The notes below the pieces were generated by a model, which was not told where the DNA came from, did not search any database, and saw nothing but the letters and a program-made list of their open reading frames with translations. Both the position numbers and the translations under genes were made by a program. A stretch of DNA of 64,000 nucleotides from Patescibacteria group bacterium UBA5738 (GTDB lineage Bacteria; Patescibacteriota; Minisyncoccia; Minisyncoccales; UBA5738). Every line of letters starts with the position of its first letter. The stretch's first letter is position 1. The stretch lies in NCBI GenBank assembly GCA_002419295.1, contig DIFW01000034.1:8098-72097 (forward strand), given 5' to 3'. Below, in pieces: positions 25,901 through 48,898 of this stretch.

Positions 25901-26015
25901 GGAATAGTTTAAAAATTAAAGCGAAAAAGTAAAAATTTAAATCTCGAAATCAACATCATTTGACATACTATTTTACAATGGTAAAATAGCTGTATACCGT
26001 AAAATAACGGATAAT

Positions 26016-27161
26016 ATGATCTATTTTAACAAAAATATGGAAAATAATACAAACGCAGGGGGCAAGAAAATTCGGTTGGCGATTGCCGGCATCGGTAATT
26101 GCTGTTCCAGTTTGGTGCAGGGAATAAACTATTACAAATATATCGGCAAGGACGATGAAACGGTGCCGGGGTTGATGCATAATGTGGTCGGCGACTACGC
26201 GCCGCGCGATATTGAAGTTGTCGCGGCGTTTGATATTGATCGGCGCAAAGTCGGCAAGGATATTTCGCGGGCAATTTTTGAAAAGCCCAATTGCACCAAA
26301 ATTTTTTGCAAAGATATTCCCGAGACCGGAGTTAGGGTCCAAATGGCGCCAGTGATGGACGGCGTGGCGGATCATATGAAAGATTATCCCGAAGACCAGT
26401 CGTTCGCGGTTGCCGACCAAAATCCAGTTGATGTTGCCGGAGAATTGAAAAAAGCCAAAGCTGATGTTTTGGTGAGTTATATGCCGGTGGGTTCGCAAAA
26501 AGCCGCCGAATATTACGCGCAGGCCGCGTTGGACGCCAACTGCGGATTTGTGAATTGCATGCCGATATTTATCGTTTCCGATGAAGCTTGGGGCGACAAA
26601 TTCAAGCGGAAAAATATTCCTTGCATCGGCGACGATATCAAATCGCAAATCGGCGCCACGATTGTGCATCGCACTCTGAGCAAATTATTCGCTAATCGCG
26701 GCGTGATTGTTGATCGCTCTTACCAGTTGAATTTCGGCGGCAACACCGACTTTTTGAATATGCTTTCCCGCGATCGGTTAAAATCCAAAAAAATTTCAAA
26801 AACCGAAAGCGTGGAATCACAACTGGGCAAAAGATTAAGTTATGATAATTTGCATATTGGACCGTCGGATTGGGTGCCGTTCTTGCAGGACAATAAAATT
26901 TGTTATATCAGAATGGAGGGCAGGAAATTCGGCGATGTCGCGATCAATCTTGAACTGCGCTTGAGTGTTGAAGATTCGCCCAATTCCGCGGGAGTGGTGA
27001 TTGACGCTCTGCGCATGGTAAAATTGGCGAAAGACCGGGGTATCGGCGGTCCGCTCACAAGCCCCTCGTCATATTTTATGAAACATCCTCCGGTTCAATA
27101 CACCGATTCCCAAGCCTATGAAATGGTGGAGGAATTTATCGCGGGAAAGCGCGATTGCTAA
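26016..27161 (+). CDS. ino1: myo-Inositol-1-phosphate synthase (inositol-3-phosphate synthase)
   Basis: IRLAIAGIGNCCSSLVQGINYYK (Rossmann/GNCxSSLVQG), SYMPVGS, GDDIKSQIGAT. An alternative start is ATG 26037. Confidence 0.8.
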   Translation: MIYFNKNMENNTNAGGKKIRLAIAGIGNCCSSLVQGINYYKYIGKDDETVPGLMHNVVGDYAPRDIEVVAAFDIDRRKVGKDISRAIFEKPNCTKIFCKDIPETGVRVQMAPVMDGVADHMKDYPEDQSFAVADQNPVDVAGELKKAKADVLVSYMPVGSQKAAEYYAQAALDANCGFVNCMPIFIVSDEAWGDKFKRKNIPCIGDDIKSQIGATIVHRTLSKLFANRGVIVDRSYQLNFGGNTDFLNMLSRDRLKSKKISKTESVESQLGKRLSYDNLHIGPSDWVPFLQDNKICYIRMEGRKFGDVAINLELRLSVEDSPNSAGVVIDALRMVKLAKDRGIGGPLTSPSSYFMKHPPVQYTDSQAYEMVEEFIAGKRDC

Positions 27162-27920: not shown

Positions 27921-28436
27921 CTAATTTTCCGCCGCCGGCAAAAAATTTATTTTCCTTGCCGTGAATTCATTGCCGGTGCCAATTTGTCCGGCGCTTTCAA
28001 TGATGGCAATATCGCCGATATTAACATCGGCGGTATTTGCCAGAATTGTGCTTTCATCGTCGATCGTTTTTTGTTTGTTTAAGGATGTGCTTTCGTCGAT
28101 GCGCACAATGTAATCGTAATCTTCTCCATCCGTCTTCATATCCATATTTATAAATATGGCCTTTTCCTCGATTTTAACTATTGTTCCGGTAATTGCCACC
28201 GAATCATCGGGTTTAATAATTTCCTCGACGGGTTTCGTGGAATTGTCCGCGGCAATTTGTTTACCATTCTCGATAATTTTTTCGGCCAGTGTTGCGTCTA
28301 AATATATTATTTTTTCTAATTGGCCGACTCTTTTATCGATGTTGGCGAGATAACCGACAATGGCTACGGCCACAACAACAATTATCATTGCCAGAATAAT
28401 TATTGAAACCAGCCCTCTCGAATTTTGGTAGTTCAT
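27921..28436 (-). CDS. Membrane-anchored extracytoplasmic protein, unknown function
   Basis: 171 aa; N-terminal TM (LVSIIILAMIIVVVAVAIVGYL), acidic soluble domain. Confidence 0.55.
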   Translation of the reverse strand: MNYQNSRGLVSIIILAMIIVVVAVAIVGYLANIDKRVGQLEKIIYLDATLAEKIIENGKQIAADNSTKPVEEIIKPDDSVAITGTIVKIEEKAIFINMDMKTDGEDYDYIVRIDESTSLNKQKTIDDESTILANTADVNIGDIAIIESAGQIGTGNEFTARKINFLPAAEN

Positions 28437-28525: not shown

Positions 28526-29926
28526 TTATATGCCGTAATAAAGTTCAAATTCCGCGGGCGTTGGCCGCAAGCGGCAAAAATCGCATTCGGCGGTTTTCTT
28601 ATAAGCGATCCAATCATTGATCAGCGATTCGCCAAAAACGCCGCCGCCAAGCAGATATTGGTAGTCGGTTTTCAACGCCGCCAATGATTCTTCCAGCGAT
28701 GCCGGTACTTGAGTGATGCCGTTGCCGTTTTTATAAATATTGCCATTGGCCGGATCTCCCGGTTCAATTTTATTCTTGATACCGTCAATGCCGGCCATCA
28801 GCATTGTCGAAAATGCCAAATATGGATTGCAGGAAGCGTCCGGCGGACGGAATTCAATTCTTTTTGCCGCTGGCGAATTATTGTACATCGGTACCCGGAT
28901 TGCCGCCGAGCGATTGCGCGCCGAGTAGGCAAGATTTGTCGGCGCTTCAAAACCGGGCACCAATCGCTTGTAAGAATTTGTTGTCGGCGCGCAAAACGCC
29001 ATCAGCGATCTTCCGTGTGCCAACAATCCGCCGACAAACCAAAGCGCAGTTTGACTCAAACCGGCATAGCCGTTGGCGTCAAAAAATAAAGCTTTAGAAT
29101 CTTTCCATAAAGAAATATGGGTGTGCATTCCCGAACCATTGTCGCCAAACAAGGGTTTGGGCATAAATGTGGCGGTTTTTCCGGCACGCCGGGCGACATT
29201 TTTTACTGCGTATTTGAACAACATTATTTTATCGGCTTGCGACAGCAAGGAATCGTATTTTATATCGATTTCAGCCTGTCCCGCGGTAGCGACTTCATGG
29301 TGTTCCTTTTCAACTTGAACGCCCAAGCGTTTCAGCTCCGCGACCATATCGCGGCGAATATCCGCGGTTTGATCGGTTGGCGACATCGGGAAATAACCTT
29401 CTTTGTTGCGAATTTTATACCCCGAGCCGTCGCTTTCGCCATTATCGCTCCAGTTGGCTTCACCGGATTCGACCCGCTGAAAGGCGCGATTTTGGCCGTT
29501 GGCAAATTCAACCCGGTCGAAAATAAAAAATTCCGGCTCCGGTCCAAAATAAGCGGCATCGGCAATGCCGGTTTTTTCCAAATACGCTTCAGCTTTTTGC
29601 GCGACGAATCGCGCGTCGTTGGCGAATCGCTCTTTTGTTTCGGGTTCGTGAATATTGCAAATCAAACTGCCTGCCGGTTCTTTGCCAAAACGGTCAATGA
29701 CAAATGTTTTGCCGTCGGGAATCAAAATCATGTCGCTTTCTTCAATATTCTTAAAACCGCGGATCGAGGATCCGTCAAAGCCGATGCCATCGATAAAAAT
29801 TTTTTCATCAAATTGTTTGATAGGCACGGTAAAGTGTTGCCACGCGCCGGGGAGATCGCAAAACTTTAAATCAATTATCTTAACGCCGTTTTTTTCGCAT
29901 TTTTCAATGATTTCTTTATAGTCCAT
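28526..29926 (-). CDS. glnA: Glutamine synthetase type I
   Basis: FGPEPEFFIF, NGSGMHTHISL, NSYKRLVPGFEAP, RIEFRPPDASCNPYLA. Start moved to ATG 29926 (MDYKEII). Confidence 0.93.
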   Translation of the reverse strand: MDYKEIIEKCEKNGVKIIDLKFCDLPGAWQHFTVPIKQFDEKIFIDGIGFDGSSIRGFKNIEESDMILIPDGKTFVIDRFGKEPAGSLICNIHEPETKERFANDARFVAQKAEAYLEKTGIADAAYFGPEPEFFIFDRVEFANGQNRAFQRVESGEANWSDNGESDGSGYKIRNKEGYFPMSPTDQTADIRRDMVAELKRLGVQVEKEHHEVATAGQAEIDIKYDSLLSQADKIMLFKYAVKNVARRAGKTATFMPKPLFGDNGSGMHTHISLWKDSKALFFDANGYAGLSQTALWFVGGLLAHGRSLMAFCAPTTNSYKRLVPGFEAPTNLAYSARNRSAAIRVPMYNNSPAAKRIEFRPPDASCNPYLAFSTMLMAGIDGIKNKIEPGDPANGNIYKNGNGITQVPASLEESLAALKTDYQYLLGGGVFGESLINDWIAYKKTAECDFCRLRPTPAEFELYYGI

Positions 29927-29939
29927 AATTTGTATCGTT

Positions 29940-29971
29940 AAAAACAAAAAGTCACCCAATTTCTTGGTGAC
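29940..29971 (-). terminator. Intrinsic terminator inside the glnA leader (attenuator)
   Basis: Minus strand GUCACC-aagaaauug-GGUGAC followed by UUUUUGUUUUU, ending 13 nt before the glnA AUG. Confidence 0.7.
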
Positions 29972-30003
29972 ACCGCTGTCGTTTGCGGCACGCCATTGTG
30001 CCG
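29969..30003 (-). promoter_or_regulatory. ANTAR-type dual hexaloop RNA target
   Basis: P1 is CGGCAC-AAUGGC-GUGCCG (30003-29986). P2 is GAC-AGCGGU-GUC (29980-29969). Both loops are 6 nt with A at position 1 and G at position 4. The P2 3' arm is the 5' arm of the terminator. Confidence 0.6.
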
Positions 30004-30012
30004 TATGCCGAT

Positions 30013-30041
30013 ATCATATTAAAAAATTGCGGTAAGGTCAA
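30013..30041 (-). promoter_or_regulatory. glnA promoter
   Basis: Minus strand TTGACC (30041-30036), 17-nt spacer, TATGAT (30018-30013). The predicted start lies just upstream of P1. Confidence 0.6.
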
Positions 30042-30116
30042 GCGGTTTGAAACAATTACCGAAATCCCATTAGAACTCGCGAAAAACGAAAACGCACATT
30101 TTTTTTGGGGGGGCGG

Positions 30117-30836
30117 CTACCTCTTAAATTCCGAAGAAATTATTATCGCGTTGGCAATTTCTTTCATACCCATGCGTTTGTCCATTGATTTTTTATGCAG
30201 TAATTTATAGGCGTCGTTTTCGCTAATTGAAAATTCTTTCATTAGGATTCCTTTGGCCTTTTCAATCATTTTGCGGGTTTCCAGCGCGGCTTTGAGTGCT
30301 TCTTTTTCGGAAAAAAGGAGGGCGTTTTCAATCGCGCCGCCAACGGCTTTGGCGACCAGCTCAAACAATGCCACTTCGGTTTTGGAGTAGACGCGCGGTT
30401 TGGAGTGTTGCACATTAATCACTCCCGAAATTTTGTCGCGGTAAACGATGGGCACTGATAAAAAACCTTCAAACTTATCTTCGGGAAGACTATTAACAAA
30501 CTTAAACCGGCCATCATTATAAGCCTCTTTGGCAATAGCGACAGTTTCTTTGTTTTTTGCCACCCAGCCGGTGATACCTTCACTTAATTTCAATTTAATA
30601 TTGCCGATTTCCAACGGTTTTGGGTTTAGCGAGGCGCGCAGAATCAGATTGTTGCCGTCTATCAAATAAAGAAAGCAGGAATCTGCCTTGGTGACGCCGC
30701 TGACAATTTTCACAATACGGTCCAAAACTTCCCTCAAATCCAGGTTATAACTAATGGTCTCGATAATTTCACGCAAAAGCTCCAATTCCTGTTTCTTGTT
30801 TATGCCAGATTTTTGGTTTTGATTTTTTCTTTTCAT
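30117..30836 (-). CDS. GAF-ANTAR RNA-binding antitermination regulator
   Basis: The N-terminal GAF-like domain has LREVLDRIVKIVSGVTKADSCFLYLID...ISGVINVQH. The C-terminal ANTAR domain has ETRKMIEKAKGILMKEFSISENDAYKLLHKKSMDKRMGMKEIANAII. Confidence 0.8.
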   Translation of the reverse strand: MKRKNQNQKSGINKKQELELLREIIETISYNLDLREVLDRIVKIVSGVTKADSCFLYLIDGNNLILRASLNPKPLEIGNIKLKLSEGITGWVAKNKETVAIAKEAYNDGRFKFVNSLPEDKFEGFLSVPIVYRDKISGVINVQHSKPRVYSKTEVALFELVAKAVGGAIENALLFSEKEALKAALETRKMIEKAKGILMKEFSISENDAYKLLHKKSMDKRMGMKEIANAIIISSEFKR

Positions 30837-30844
30837 GGAATTGA

Positions 30845-31432
30845 TTATCGGATTATTTTTGGCGGGGTTTGCGTCAAATCAATAATTACTGATGGTTTTG
30901 ATTGCGGCAGATCGCCGGTATTGACGGCAAGATCGGGGATAATTATTTTGCCATGGAATTGCCGCAAAACTTCGTCAATTTTTCCCGATGCCGCTTGTCC
31001 CGAAATATTGGCGGATGTCGCGCACAAAGGCAAATTCAAGGTTTCCAAAAGCGAGTTGACGAAAGGGCAAAAAGGAATGCGCAGAGCGGCGGTTTCTTCA
31101 TCAACGCCAAACAATTTTTGCGCCTTTTTTCTTTCCATGATAAAAGTAAATTTTCCCGGCCATTTCTCTTCCAAAAATTTTTCCTGATTTGGCGAAATTT
31201 TTACCAGTTTTCTTGCCATAGCCATATTTTTCACGAATATCGGCAGGGGTTTTTCTTTTGAACGATTTTTTATCGCAAAAATTTTTTCAATCGCTTTTTT
31301 GTTGGTGGCATCGGCCAACATTCCATAGACCGTATCGGTTGGGGCGATTATTGCGCCGCCAAGCTGGATTTCGCGAGCGGCGATTTCCACGGCATTTTGA
31401 AAATTTTTTGGCGTTAAGGAAATGATATTCAT
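30845..31432 (-). CDS. tsaC: L-threonylcarbamoyladenylate synthase (TsaC/YrdC/Sua5 family)
   Basis: GGAIIAPTDTVYGMLADATN...IFAIKNRSKEKPLPIFV. Start moved to ATG 31432. Confidence 0.8.
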   Translation of the reverse strand: MNIISLTPKNFQNAVEIAAREIQLGGAIIAPTDTVYGMLADATNKKAIEKIFAIKNRSKEKPLPIFVKNMAMARKLVKISPNQEKFLEEKWPGKFTFIMERKKAQKLFGVDEETAALRIPFCPFVNSLLETLNLPLCATSANISGQAASGKIDEVLRQFHGKIIIPDLAVNTGDLPQSKPSVIIDLTQTPPKIIR

Positions 31433-31436
31433 TTTT

Positions 31437-31745
31437 TCATTTTTGGGTTTGATCTTCAAGGTACTGTTTGATGCGCGCCATTTCATTTTCCACCACCGGA
31501 CCGTCATAATCTCCGGAATGAGCGGTAGCGCCGTCATAAACCGGTTTTTTTTGGTCCAAATGTAAGCTCAAGAACAAATCACCGTTTTCAATTTTTACAA
31601 ACAAATGAAGATGGGGATAGCCTGATTTTGGCCGGGTAAATCCCAACTCTTTCGTTTTTTCATCTTGTCCTTGAAAATGATATCCTAAATCGCGCAATAA
31701 GTTATAGATTGTGTTCTTCAATTTTCCGTTAGTTCTGCTTTTCAT
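31437..31745 (-). CDS. Hypothetical protein (102 aa)
   Basis: The ORF ends 4 nt upstream of the tsaC start on the same strand. No motif recognised. Confidence 0.45.
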   Translation of the reverse strand: MKSRTNGKLKNTIYNLLRDLGYHFQGQDEKTKELGFTRPKSGYPHLHLFVKIENGDLFLSLHLDQKKPVYDGATAHSGDYDGPVVENEMARIKQYLEDQTQK

Positions 31746-47458: not shown

Positions 47459-48898
47459 ATGGATAAAATTATGGAAAATCAATCTCAAAAGGAACTGGCA
47501 AGGACAATGATCGCTCAAACGCCGGGAATGGCCGGTCAAACGGTGCGGTTATGCGGCTGGGTGCAAATTGTGCGCGCCCATGGCAAGCTGATTTTTTTTG
47601 ATTTGCGCGATCGAAGCGGTGTTATTCAAGCGGTGGTAATTCCCAAGGCGCCGTTTTTTGATTTGGCAAAGGAAGTGAGAAGCGAATGGGTGGTGGAGCT
47701 TGTCGGACAGGTGAATGTGCGGCCGGAAAATATGAAAAATGACAAAATTGCCACCGGCGGCGTGGAGATTGTCATTGAAGATTTGAAAATTTTATCAAAA
47801 GCTAAAACGCTTCCCATTTCCATTGACGGCGACGGCTATGAGATTGGCGAAGATAACCGTTTGAAATATCGTTATTTGGATTTGCGGCGCGCGCGTTTGC
47901 ATCGCAATCTGGTAATGCGCCACAAGGTGATTAACTTTATGCGGCAGTTTCTGACCGGTCAGGGGTTTGTGGAGGTGGAAACGCCGTTATTAACCAAATC
48001 AACGCCCGAAGGCGCGCGCGATTTTTTGGTGCCGTCGCGATTGCAAAAGGGCAATTTTTACGCGTTGCCGCAAAGTCCCCAGCAATACAAGCAACTTTTA
48101 ATGGTGGCCGGGCTAGAGCGTTATTTTCAAATTGCGCGTTGTTTGCGCGATGAAGATCCGCGCGCGGACCGGCAAGCCGAGCATACCCAGCTTGATGTGG
48201 AAATGTCGTTTGCCGATGAAGATGAGGTTTTGGATTTATCCGAAAAGATGTTTGTCGCGCTCGTGAAGGATTTGTTCCCGGATAAAAAAATCAGCCGGAT
48301 TCCGTTTCCGAGGCTGACATGGAAAGAGTCAATGGAAAAATACGGTAGCGACAAACCGGACTTGCGTGAAGATAAAAACGATCCGAACGAACTCGCGTTT
48401 TGTTTTATAACCGATTTTCCGATGTTCGAATGGCTTGCCGGAGAAAAGAAATGGAACGCAATGCATCATCCTTTTACCAAACCGCGTACCGAAGATCCGG
48501 AGGAAATCAAAGCATGCCCGGAAAAAATTATGGCTTACCAGTATGATATGGCGTTAAATGGCTTTGAAATATTTTCCGGCAGTCTTCGGAATACGAATTT
48601 GGAAACTTTTACCGCGGTATTCGAGGTGGTCGGCCACACGCCCGAAGAGACCAAAAAACAATTTTCGCATTACTTTGAGGCCTTTTCTTATGGCGTGCCG
48701 CCGCATGGAGGCATGGCGCCGGGGATTGACCGCTTGTTGGCGGTGTTATTGGGCGAACCCAATATCCGTGAAGTGATGGCATTTCCCAAAACGGGGGATA
48801 ACCGCGATTTAATGTTGGATGCGCCATCACCGGTGGAAGGGGCGCAGTTGGATGAGCTTGGCTTGGCGATTGTTAAAAAGGAAAAACCGGTAAAATGA
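47459..48898 (+). CDS. aspS: Aspartate--tRNA ligase, bacterial-type core lacking the GAD insertion
   Basis: OB-fold N-terminus, FYALPQSPQQYKQLLM, RCLRDEDPRADRQAEHTQLDVEMSF, GVPPHGGMAPGIDRL. YGSDKPDLR runs almost directly into ITDFPMFE. Confidence 0.9.
   Translation: MDKIMENQSQKELARTMIAQTPGMAGQTVRLCGWVQIVRAHGKLIFFDLRDRSGVIQAVVIPKAPFFDLAKEVRSEWVVELVGQVNVRPENMKNDKIATGGVEIVIEDLKILSKAKTLPISIDGDGYEIGEDNRLKYRYLDLRRARLHRNLVMRHKVINFMRQFLTGQGFVEVETPLLTKSTPEGARDFLVPSRLQKGNFYALPQSPQQYKQLLMVAGLERYFQIARCLRDEDPRADRQAEHTQLDVEMSFADEDEVLDLSEKMFVALVKDLFPDKKISRIPFPRLTWKESMEKYGSDKPDLREDKNDPNELAFCFITDFPMFEWLAGEKKWNAMHHPFTKPRTEDPEEIKACPEKIMAYQYDMALNGFEIFSGSLRNTNLETFTAVFEVVGHTPEETKKQFSHYFEAFSYGVPPHGGMAPGIDRLLAVLLGEPNIREVMAFPKTGDNRDLMLDAPSPVEGAQLDELGLAIVKKEKPVK

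Follow-up and report, generated by a model that had tools for sequence, protein, structure and literature searches.

The 64-kb stretch of DNA analyzed here (hereafter, the window; Patescibacteria group bacterium UBA5738, contig DIFW01000034.1) encodes a protein that combines a GAF domain with an ANTAR domain and, as the next gene downstream on the same strand after an intergenic spacer of 190 nt, a glutamine synthetase (glnA), which is preceded by a short leader containing two small hairpins and an intrinsic terminator; all elements of the locus are on the minus strand. We propose that they form a one-component ANTAR antitermination switch for glnA, a reading to which we assign a probability of about 80%. 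The proposal starts from features apparent in the sequence and in its comparison with related loci, namely the domains of the protein, the promoter, both hairpins, the overlap of the second hairpin with the terminator, the covariation in the first hairpin and in the terminator, and the linkage of the leader to the GAF-ANTAR gene; from these, we infer RNA binding, transcriptional termination and read-through, a dimeric regulator, its ligand and the sign of the response to that ligand.

ANTAR target RNAs have been defined by two stems of at least 3 bp (P1 and P2), each capped by a hexaloop with A in the first and G in the fourth position (A1 and G4), a short linker, which is 5-12 nt in the eut leaders, and an overlap of P2 with an intrinsic terminator (PMC3369931). 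The glnA leader has each of these features (Table 1), in agreement with an earlier note made from the sequence of the locus alone, which had recognized the match to the published model. The promoter, P1, P2, the terminator and the start codon of glnA 13 nt further on all lie where that note had placed them, and its statements that both loops are A1/G4 hexaloops and that the 3' arm of P2 lies in the 5' arm of the terminator are exact in the window sequence. The shared bases are GUC at 29971-29969, which make up the 3' arm of P2 and also open the terminator 5' arm, with the consequence that only one of the two structures can form at a time. The promoter is the top promoter-like site in 29800-30950 (10/12 matches), and the leader RNA, from its likely start to the U-tract, is ~65 nt long. 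The earlier note had counted the 3-bp stem of P2 as a weakness. This concern can be set aside because the published definition asks for at least 3 bp (PMC3369931), EutV contacts only the three closing pairs (PMC8934654), and a P2 of 3 bp is found in 7 of the 17 leaders that are compared below. The terminator hairpin, with its 9-nt loop, was missed by a terminator scan with a loop limit of 8 nt. The 13 nt that separate the U-tract from the glnA start codon (AACGAUACAAAUU, 29927-29939) contain no recognizable Shine-Dalgarno sequence; GGAG-type sites precede the regulated gene in several relatives.

Table 1. Elements of the GAF-ANTAR/glnA locus, in window coordinates
Feature	Position	Strand	Description
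GAF-ANTAR regulator gene	30117-30836	-	239 aa; Pfam GAF_2/GAF/GAF_3 + ANTAR; GAF, long linker helix, C-terminal ANTAR
GAF sensor domain, PtsP/EI-Ntr type	30327-30743	-	residues 32-170; Pfam GAF_2 E=1.8e-17
ANTAR domain, predicted to bind RNA	30141-30302	-	residues 179-232; PF03861 E=1.3e-19
Promoter, sigma-70 type	30041-30013	-	TTGACC 30041-30036, 17-nt spacer, TATGAT 30018-30013
P1 hairpin	30003-29986	-	CGGCAC-AAUGGC-GUGCCG; 6 bp; hexaloop with A1, G4; formed by RNAfold
P1-P2 linker	29985-29981	-	CAAAC, 5 nt
P2 hairpin, proposed antiterminator element	29980-29969	-	GAC-AGCGGU-GUC; 3 bp; hexaloop with A1, G4
Terminator hairpin	29971-29951	-	GUCACC-AAGAAAUUG-GGUGAC; 9-nt loop; RNAfold -8.4 kcal/mol
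U-tract of intrinsic terminator	29950-29940	-	UUUUUGUUUUU
glnA start codon	29926-29924	-	ATG, 13 nt beyond the U-tract
glnA, type I glutamine synthetase	28526-29926	-	466 aa; ATG 29926-29924, stop at 28526

The ANTAR domain of the protein is a full-length match to PF03861 (70.1 bits vs the cut-off of 27.3 bits; profile positions 1-54 of 54) and aligns without gaps to EutV (6wsh, E=7e-13), Rv1626 and NasR (E=3e-8), with ~54% identity to the EutV segment. Nine of the 12 RNA-contact residues of EutV are identical (R188, K189, K193, K195, E206, Y210, M218 and R221, along with the dimer contact E192). In particular, the EutV residues that read G4, R142, K149 and E160, correspond to R188, K195 and E206, and Tyr164, which stacks on the flipped loop base, corresponds to Y210. 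The contacts were taken from the paper on the EutV-RNA structure (PMC8934654), with an offset of two residues between the chain index and the numbering used there. The claim of the earlier note that the leader is acted upon by the protein encoded next to it is thus probably correct, given the comparative fit: the same architecture stands beside GAF-ANTAR homologues in 16 other loci, and the EutV residues are retained.

For this comparison, the DNA around homologues of the protein was taken from representative genomes, metagenomes and, for close relatives, exact-protein look-ups. The resulting set consists of 17 distinct leaders, that is, the window and 16 other loci whose GAF-ANTAR homologues have an identity of about 50% or higher; these 16 loci come from several phyla and belong to Paceibacterota, Gottesmanbacteria, Anaerolineales and unbinned metagenome contigs. 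In each of the 17 loci, the leader is located no more than 3 kb from the GAF-ANTAR gene and precedes glnA, amtB or small open reading frames (ORFs). A glnA gene lies downstream of the GAF-ANTAR gene in loci of the Paceibacterota type (L001, L002, L081, L161, L163, L165, L167 and L173) and also in Gottesmanbacteria (L003), Anaerolineales (L004) and two metagenomic loci with homologues of 50-54% identity (L083 and L094). In L001 and L163, a beta-propeller gene in the opposite orientation is inserted between the regulator and glnA, and the leader remains with glnA; this arrangement and the position of the leader before amtB in L082 are both in keeping with a nitrogen regulon.

Most of the homologous leaders have a TTGAC(A/C/T)-~17-TAnnAT promoter ~8-12 nt before P1. 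Across the 17 leaders, P1 consists of 5-7 bp with at most one mismatch and carries a hexaloop, its 5' arm being represented by 16 different sequences, and the linker is 2-16 nt long. The loops are strongly conserved, with G4 in 34/34 and A1 in 31/34. For P2, GAC/GUC arms are present in 16/17 leaders, G4 in 17/17 and A1 in 15/17, and the shared form is (A)GAC-hexaloop-GUC(U), followed by a hairpin and a U-tract, the 5' arm of this hairpin beginning inside GUCU. The 5' arm of the terminator includes the 3' arm of P2 in all 17 leaders (15 by folding; L002 and L175 by eye), and the terminator arms differ freely among the loci yet always pair (CCGAA/UUCGG, CCUAGCC/GGCUAGG, CCCG/CGGG and others). 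A U(4-6)GU(2-6) tract is found in most of the homologous leaders; the start codon is 10 to ~170 nt beyond the U-tract, and the dual hairpin never overlaps it. P2 alone is weak and the terminator is far more stable in most leaders, so that termination should be the default state.

Given that MAFFT misplaced some of the P1 3' arms, the leaders were realigned with a covariance model. Two models were used, R1, with 12 leaders and the P1/P2 structure, and R2, with 15 leaders and the window excluded; both were calibrated briefly, and their E-values are accordingly rough. R1 has a single significant match in the window, the glnA leader, with nothing else below E ~0.8. Over ~1 Mb of fetched loci, it recovered all training leaders and found new ones in L082, L168, L175 and, weakly, L171; a scan with the core pattern described below added L169. 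All newly found leaders are immediately beside GAF-ANTAR genes, and in the fetched loci the significant R1 matches are confined to the neighborhood of GAF-ANTAR genes with about 50% identity or more. Over 128 kb, R2 puts the window leader on top with 25.3 bits (E ~0.002; the next match has E ~0.44); the leave-one-out score reaches only 25 bits because the P2 loop of the window departs from the family consensus. Two weaker model matches in the window were rejected as chance. The second-best one, at 25972-26022 on the plus strand (E=0.44-1.3), has a first loop of 4 nt, a second loop without G4 and no terminator, and overlaps the start of an ORF at 26016-27161 that is an inositol-1-phosphate synthase gene by synteny; the other, at 47864-47921 on the minus strand (E=0.8-2), has a 25-nt insertion in loop 1.

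In a 16-leader alignment, four of the five pairs of P1 show compensatory changes (22 cells) and 95% of the cells are paired, counts that are biased upon fitting of the alignment to the model. The covariation score is 0.465, a value reached in 0/500 shuffles, vs 0.133 ± 0.027 after shuffling and no more than 0.16 with the partners slid. The arms of the terminator also covary, by inspection of the folded leaders. The earlier note had named two checks of its reading, covariation in related glnA leaders and a scan with a covariance model: compensatory changes are present in P1, P2 being invariant, and the model built without the window ranks the window leader first. The Rfam 15 scan of 29800-30250 with E up to 10 gave no ANTAR-type match, it not having been established that Rfam holds such a family.

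A loose scan for a T-run and any pair of A..G.. hexaloops on stems of 3 bp or more yields 15 matches in the window and is too unspecific to serve as evidence, so it was replaced by the covariance models and by a stricter core pattern, ACA..G..GU-N(2-20)-ACA..G..GU. This pattern combines A1, G4 and the closing AC/GU pairs; it was defined after seeing the data and agrees with the published eut motif, the closing AC/GU pairs being sequence-conserved in the eut leaders (Ramesh et al., PMC3369931). On both strands of the window, the core pattern occurs once, against 0.01 occurrences expected from 200 dinucleotide shuffles.

The switch would operate as follows. Transcription would start a few bases after TATGAT, and P1 would be the first element to fold. 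By default, the stronger terminator (GUCACC/GGUGAC and the U-tract) would form and halt RNA polymerase ~15-25 nt before the start codon of glnA. An active GAF-ANTAR dimer, which is plausible because of the GAF domains and the long linker helix, would bind the A1/G4 hexaloops of P1 and P2; binding would keep the weak 3-bp P2 closed and sequester the GUC at the base of the terminator 5' arm, and the polymerase would thereby be able to continue into glnA. RNA binding would be turned on by low glutamine and/or high 2-oxoglutarate and turned off by high glutamine. As a result of such gating by glutamine, the synthesis of glutamine synthetase would be feedback-controlled.

The nature of the signal is suggested by the GAF domain. 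Its best solved relatives are the GAF domains of PtsP (3ci6, E=9e-23; 3trc, E=8e-13), with an unannotated Geobacter GAF domain (3e0y, E=1.5e-20) between them, and the best match in PDB outside these three has E=7e-6; among NCBIfam models, PRK11061 (PtsP) comes first with E=1e-22, followed by NifA with E=3e-8. In the AlphaFold2 model (mean predicted local distance difference test score, pLDDT, of 77), a continuous helix of residues 152-202 joins GAF to ANTAR, and a Foldseek search with this model again has PtsP GAF domains on top (3ci6, template modeling (TM) score 0.83-0.85, root-mean-square deviation 2.2 Å). Many of the residues that are invariant in the family, D52, C54, Y57, E86-G87, F111, P129, Y132 and Q143 among them, are common to the PtsP GAF domain and the one described here, whereas the output domain is the RNA-binding ANTAR in the latter and a phosphoenolpyruvate-dependent phosphotransferase in PtsP. 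EI-Ntr's GAF domain binds glutamine, with inhibition of autophosphorylation as the consequence, in E. coli, S. meliloti and C. crescentus (PMC4848567), and in E. coli 2-oxoglutarate is described as another ligand of the domain that acts reciprocally (Lee 2013, as cited in PMC4848567). With a GAF domain of the PtsP/EI-Ntr type, cellular nitrogen status appears to be the most likely input, and glutamine and/or 2-oxoglutarate are our best guess for the ligand. The more specific scheme, in which the domain binds glutamine directly, perhaps antagonized by 2-oxoglutarate, and thereby gates RNA binding by ANTAR, is tentative, with the odds somewhat against it. The type of the GAF domain, the leader before an ammonium transporter gene in L082 and the position of some acidobacterial homologues beside amtB-glnB together point to nitrogen limitation as the probable ON signal.

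Several of the related loci extend the range of genes found behind the leader. In L082 (2736-4077), the regulator is a homologue with 54% identity; behind its gene come the leader UGCAC-AGUGGC-GUGCA ... AGAC-AAAGAU-GUCU and a terminator, and then a gene for an Amt-type ammonium transporter instead of glnA. In three Paceibacterota loci where glnA is not adjacent (L168:3858-4318, L169:3508-3993 and L171:3916-4152), a leader with promoter, dual hexaloop and terminator directly follows the GAF-ANTAR gene and precedes one or two small Cys-rich ORFs of ~64-86 aa. The products of these ORFs are homologous to one another (tblastn E down to 1e-11) and have in common the motif CP[FY]..(n)C...FL...C..C...CH[IVY][FY]; neither a Pfam match nor a homologue in the window was found for them, and they may be unannotated members of the regulon. 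In L175 (1430-2653), the leader (1470-1504), which again has a promoter and a terminator, precedes two very small basic ORFs of 38 and 43 aa, the first of which has a strong Shine-Dalgarno sequence, and also the GAF-ANTAR gene itself, which suggests autoregulation in that genome. Among the matches listed, GAF-ANTAR homologues of Acidobacteriota (~40-47% identity) are often located within 1-3 kb of amtB and glnB, the gene for PII (L026, L034, L036, L046, L051, L057, L058, L147 and L160), or of amtB only (L099, L120 and L126); in L057, glnA is nearby as well. R1 has no match below E=0.2 in the ~150 loci of the Acidobacteriota type among the matches listed, and the RNA targets of these proteins may differ or lie elsewhere.

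A number of observations weigh against the proposed switch. Three backbone-contact residues of EutV are replaced in the protein (R168 by H214, N173 by D219 and R177 by G223), and the PtsP GAF domains, on which the ligand assignment is based, are only ~30% identical to that of the protein. P2 (GAC/GUC) is invariant in the 16-leader alignment, hence has no covariation support, and may represent a sequence motif and not a helix. In the window, the sequence of the P2 loop is AGCGGU instead of the family consensus AAUGAN, and the stem is without the fourth A-U pair present in most relatives. At 29969-29990, pairing is possible between GCCGC of the P1 3' arm and GCGGU of the P2 loop, and in one RNAfold solution of the window leader, although in none of the relatives, the resulting 5-bp GCCGC/GCGGU helix replaces both P1 and P2. 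The folding z-score of the whole leader is only -1.7 relative to shuffled sequence, so that thermodynamics alone is weak evidence. Among the matches listed, acidobacterial homologues of ~45% identity have no dual-hexaloop/terminator leader nearby, by both the model and the hexaloop scan. Finally, only 64 kb of the genome is visible.

This last point bears on the possibility that the leader is a genuine ANTAR target on which a different ANTAR protein encoded elsewhere acts (for example, one of the response-regulator type, such as NitR, EutV or GnfR), the adjacent GAF-ANTAR protein having other or additional targets. Cross-recognition is conceivable given that all ANTAR proteins share the RNA motif (PMC3369931), and in some relatives glnA is not beside the GAF-ANTAR gene. 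We nevertheless consider a distant regulator unlikely: in all 17 loci, whatever gene follows, the leader and the GAF-ANTAR gene are no more than 3 kb apart, the 64-kb window contains no second ANTAR gene, and genomes of the candidate phyla radiation (CPR) are small. It is improbable, too, that the GAF-ANTAR protein binds the dual hairpin but has its main effect on translation or mRNA stability and not on termination, as has been suggested for ANTAR targets of actinobacteria. Such a mode of action would be in line with translational repression as reported for mycobacterial ANTAR RNAs (bioRxiv 10.1101/660928, PMC8164766) and with the lack of an obvious Shine-Dalgarno sequence before glnA in the window, but not readily with the overlap of a hairpin and U-tract with P2 in 17/17 leaders or with the consistent separation of the dual hairpin from the start codon.

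The hairpins might, alternatively, not be bound by any protein, with P1 serving as a 5' stabilizing hairpin, the terminator as a constitutive attenuator or insulator that separates the regulator gene from glnA, and A1 and G4 arising by coincidence. The frequency of loose dual-hexaloop matches in the window, the missing covariation of P2 and the weak folding z-score would agree with this, but we regard it as very improbable, because G4 and A1 persist across leaders that have diverged and whose stem sequences vary freely, only 0.01 occurrences of the strict core pattern are expected per window, and the leader travels with the target gene past intervening genes; moreover, with the promoter upstream of the terminator, constitutive termination would shut glnA off. 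Nitrogen genes of cyanobacteria are known to be preceded by glutamine riboswitches, whose family is included in Rfam. That the leader itself is a metabolite-sensing riboswitch, for example the glutamine-binding glnA RNA motif, is hardly credible, however: with E values up to 10 allowed, the Rfam 15 scan of 29800-30250 detected neither this motif nor any other cis-regulator, its sole match being to the viral HCV_SLVII at E=9.4, which is attributable to chance; the E-loop/pseudoknot fold of the glnA motif is beyond the reach of ~35 nt with two tiny hairpins; and an ANTAR protein is encoded alongside. An antitermination switch operated by the adjacent GAF-ANTAR protein is thus the reading that we prefer.

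The earlier note was right that the gene for the GAF and ANTAR domain protein is directly upstream of glnA on the same strand, as borne out by the Pfam domains of the former, the assignment of the latter to TIGR00653 and the minus-strand location of both. The glnA product contains Gln-synt_N and Gln-synt_C (Pfam) and matches TIGR00653 of NCBIfam at the equivalog level (636 bits vs the 429-bit cut-off), and the ATG at 29926 agrees with the N-termini of the homologues. On the other side, a tsaC-like gene (Sua5/YciO/YrdC; TIGR00057) at 30845-31537 precedes the GAF-ANTAR gene by 8 nt on the same strand, a pairing that is also kept in L161, L163 and L176. The stretch from the GAF-ANTAR stop codon to the glnA promoter shows no evident terminator of the hairpin type, and the regulator is therefore probably co-transcribed with the tsaC-like gene. 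Directly downstream of glnA, a 171-aa ORF (27921-28436, minus strand) has no Pfam or NCBIfam match; in relatives, this position is occupied by AMMECR1 and PHP-domain genes or by a divergent CDP-alcohol phosphatidyltransferase gene. By tblastn, no other nitrogen genes were found in the window with an approximate E. coli GlnB query, the ammonium transporter of L082 and the small Cys-rich proteins. Homologues of the GAF-ANTAR protein number more than 1,400; among those with a name, 'GAF and ANTAR domain-containing protein [Candidatus Paceibacterota]' is the closest, and the nearest homologues (61-100% identity) are from Candidatus Paceibacterota or Patescibacteria wherever they are named. Many family members are labeled 'uroporphyrinogen-III synthase' or 'signal transduction protein with GAF and PtsI domain' in JGI/IMG; the first label conflicts with the domain content, and the second mirrors the PtsP-type GAF domain.

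To our knowledge, there are no published data on the regulation of nitrogen assimilation in CPR bacteria, and the locus suggests how these ultra-small organisms might accomplish it. It represents a clean regulator-target pair for the GAF-ANTAR class, with a short RNA and an obvious output (glnA here, amtB in a relative), and the glutamine/2-oxoglutarate hypothesis, which rests on the PtsP-type GAF domain, is testable; the locus therefore is a good entry point both to the ligand of GAF-ANTAR proteins and to nitrogen regulation in CPR. If the GAF domain is indeed gated by glutamine, a single 239-aa protein would exert product-feedback control over glutamine synthetase. On the same condition, the ammonium transporter and the small Cys-rich protein family of relatives would also be controlled, the system might act as the principal regulator of nitrogen metabolism in CPR/Patescibacteria and part of the Chloroflexota, in place of the PII/NtrBC or GlnR/TnrA circuits, and the protein would be the first of the GAF-ANTAR class with a defined ligand and target.

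The glnA regulators of the NitR type belong to the receiver-domain class rather than the GAF class; in Clostridium, the regulator gene has been reported downstream of glnA, and an antisense RNA is also involved. NitR of Clostridium saccharobutylicum is similar to the system proposed here in that an ANTAR protein acts by antitermination on genes for glutamine synthetase and glutamate synthase (GS/GOGAT) under nitrogen limitation and is encoded beside glnA (PMC6316151); the earlier note does not mention this precedent from Clostridia. Glutamine synthetase is repeatedly found among predicted ANTAR-RNA targets, with an adjacent ANTAR gene in Alkaliphilus (Amet_3386/Amet_3385; PMC3369931 Table S2). 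NitR and the Firmicutes hosts, however, come from a phylum different from that of the window. In Geobacter sulfurreducens, GnfK/GnfR includes an ANTAR protein that relieves premature termination in leaders of nitrogen genes, among them nifH, glnK and amtB (PMC2995071), the last of which is also the gene behind the leader in L082. Unlike the one-component system described here, GnfK/GnfR is a phosphorylation-dependent two-component system with nitrogen fixation as its regulon.

At the level of the RNA, the closest parallel is EutV of Enterococcus faecalis with its eutP/G/S/A leaders (6WSH/6WW6), which have the same A1/G4 dual hairpin and a P2 that overlaps an intrinsic terminator. The closing AC/GU pairs are common to both, with the loop consensus AANGRR in eut vs AAUGAN here, and the P2 loop consensus of the family, AANGRN, together with the closing pairs resembles the eut 13-mer AGCAANGRRGCUY. 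The modeled linker helix (residues 152-202) would likewise resemble the signaling helix that forms the coiled coil of the EutV dimer. In contrast to the protein in the window, which carries its GAF domain in a one-component arrangement, EutV is a response regulator phosphorylated by EutW, and its targets are ethanolamine genes rather than glnA of a CPR host. NasR of Klebsiella oxytoca, a NIT-ANTAR protein, is closer in this respect, being a one-component, ligand-gated regulator of the leader of a nitrogen assimilation operon, nasF, with two hexaloop hairpins (PMC12591593, PMC7496416), as predicted for the present system; the sensor of NasR is the nitrate/nitrite-binding NIT domain and its signal is the substrate, whereas here the sensor is GAF and the signal is presumably the product or nitrogen status. 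Along with NasR, which acts on nasF, AmiR acts on ami (PMC12591593).

GAF-ANTAR is a common ANTAR architecture of which no member had been characterized as of 2012 (Ramesh 2012, PMC3369931), and only NasR and PAL are named as characterized one-component ANTAR proteins in Goodson 2020; a full-text literature search returned no study of any GAF-ANTAR protein. ANTAR control of nitrogen genes, including that for glutamine synthetase, is already established, so the present finding extends and does not overturn existing knowledge; what is new is the GAF-ANTAR sensor class, a one-component protein with a GAF domain of the PtsP type, and its CPR host.

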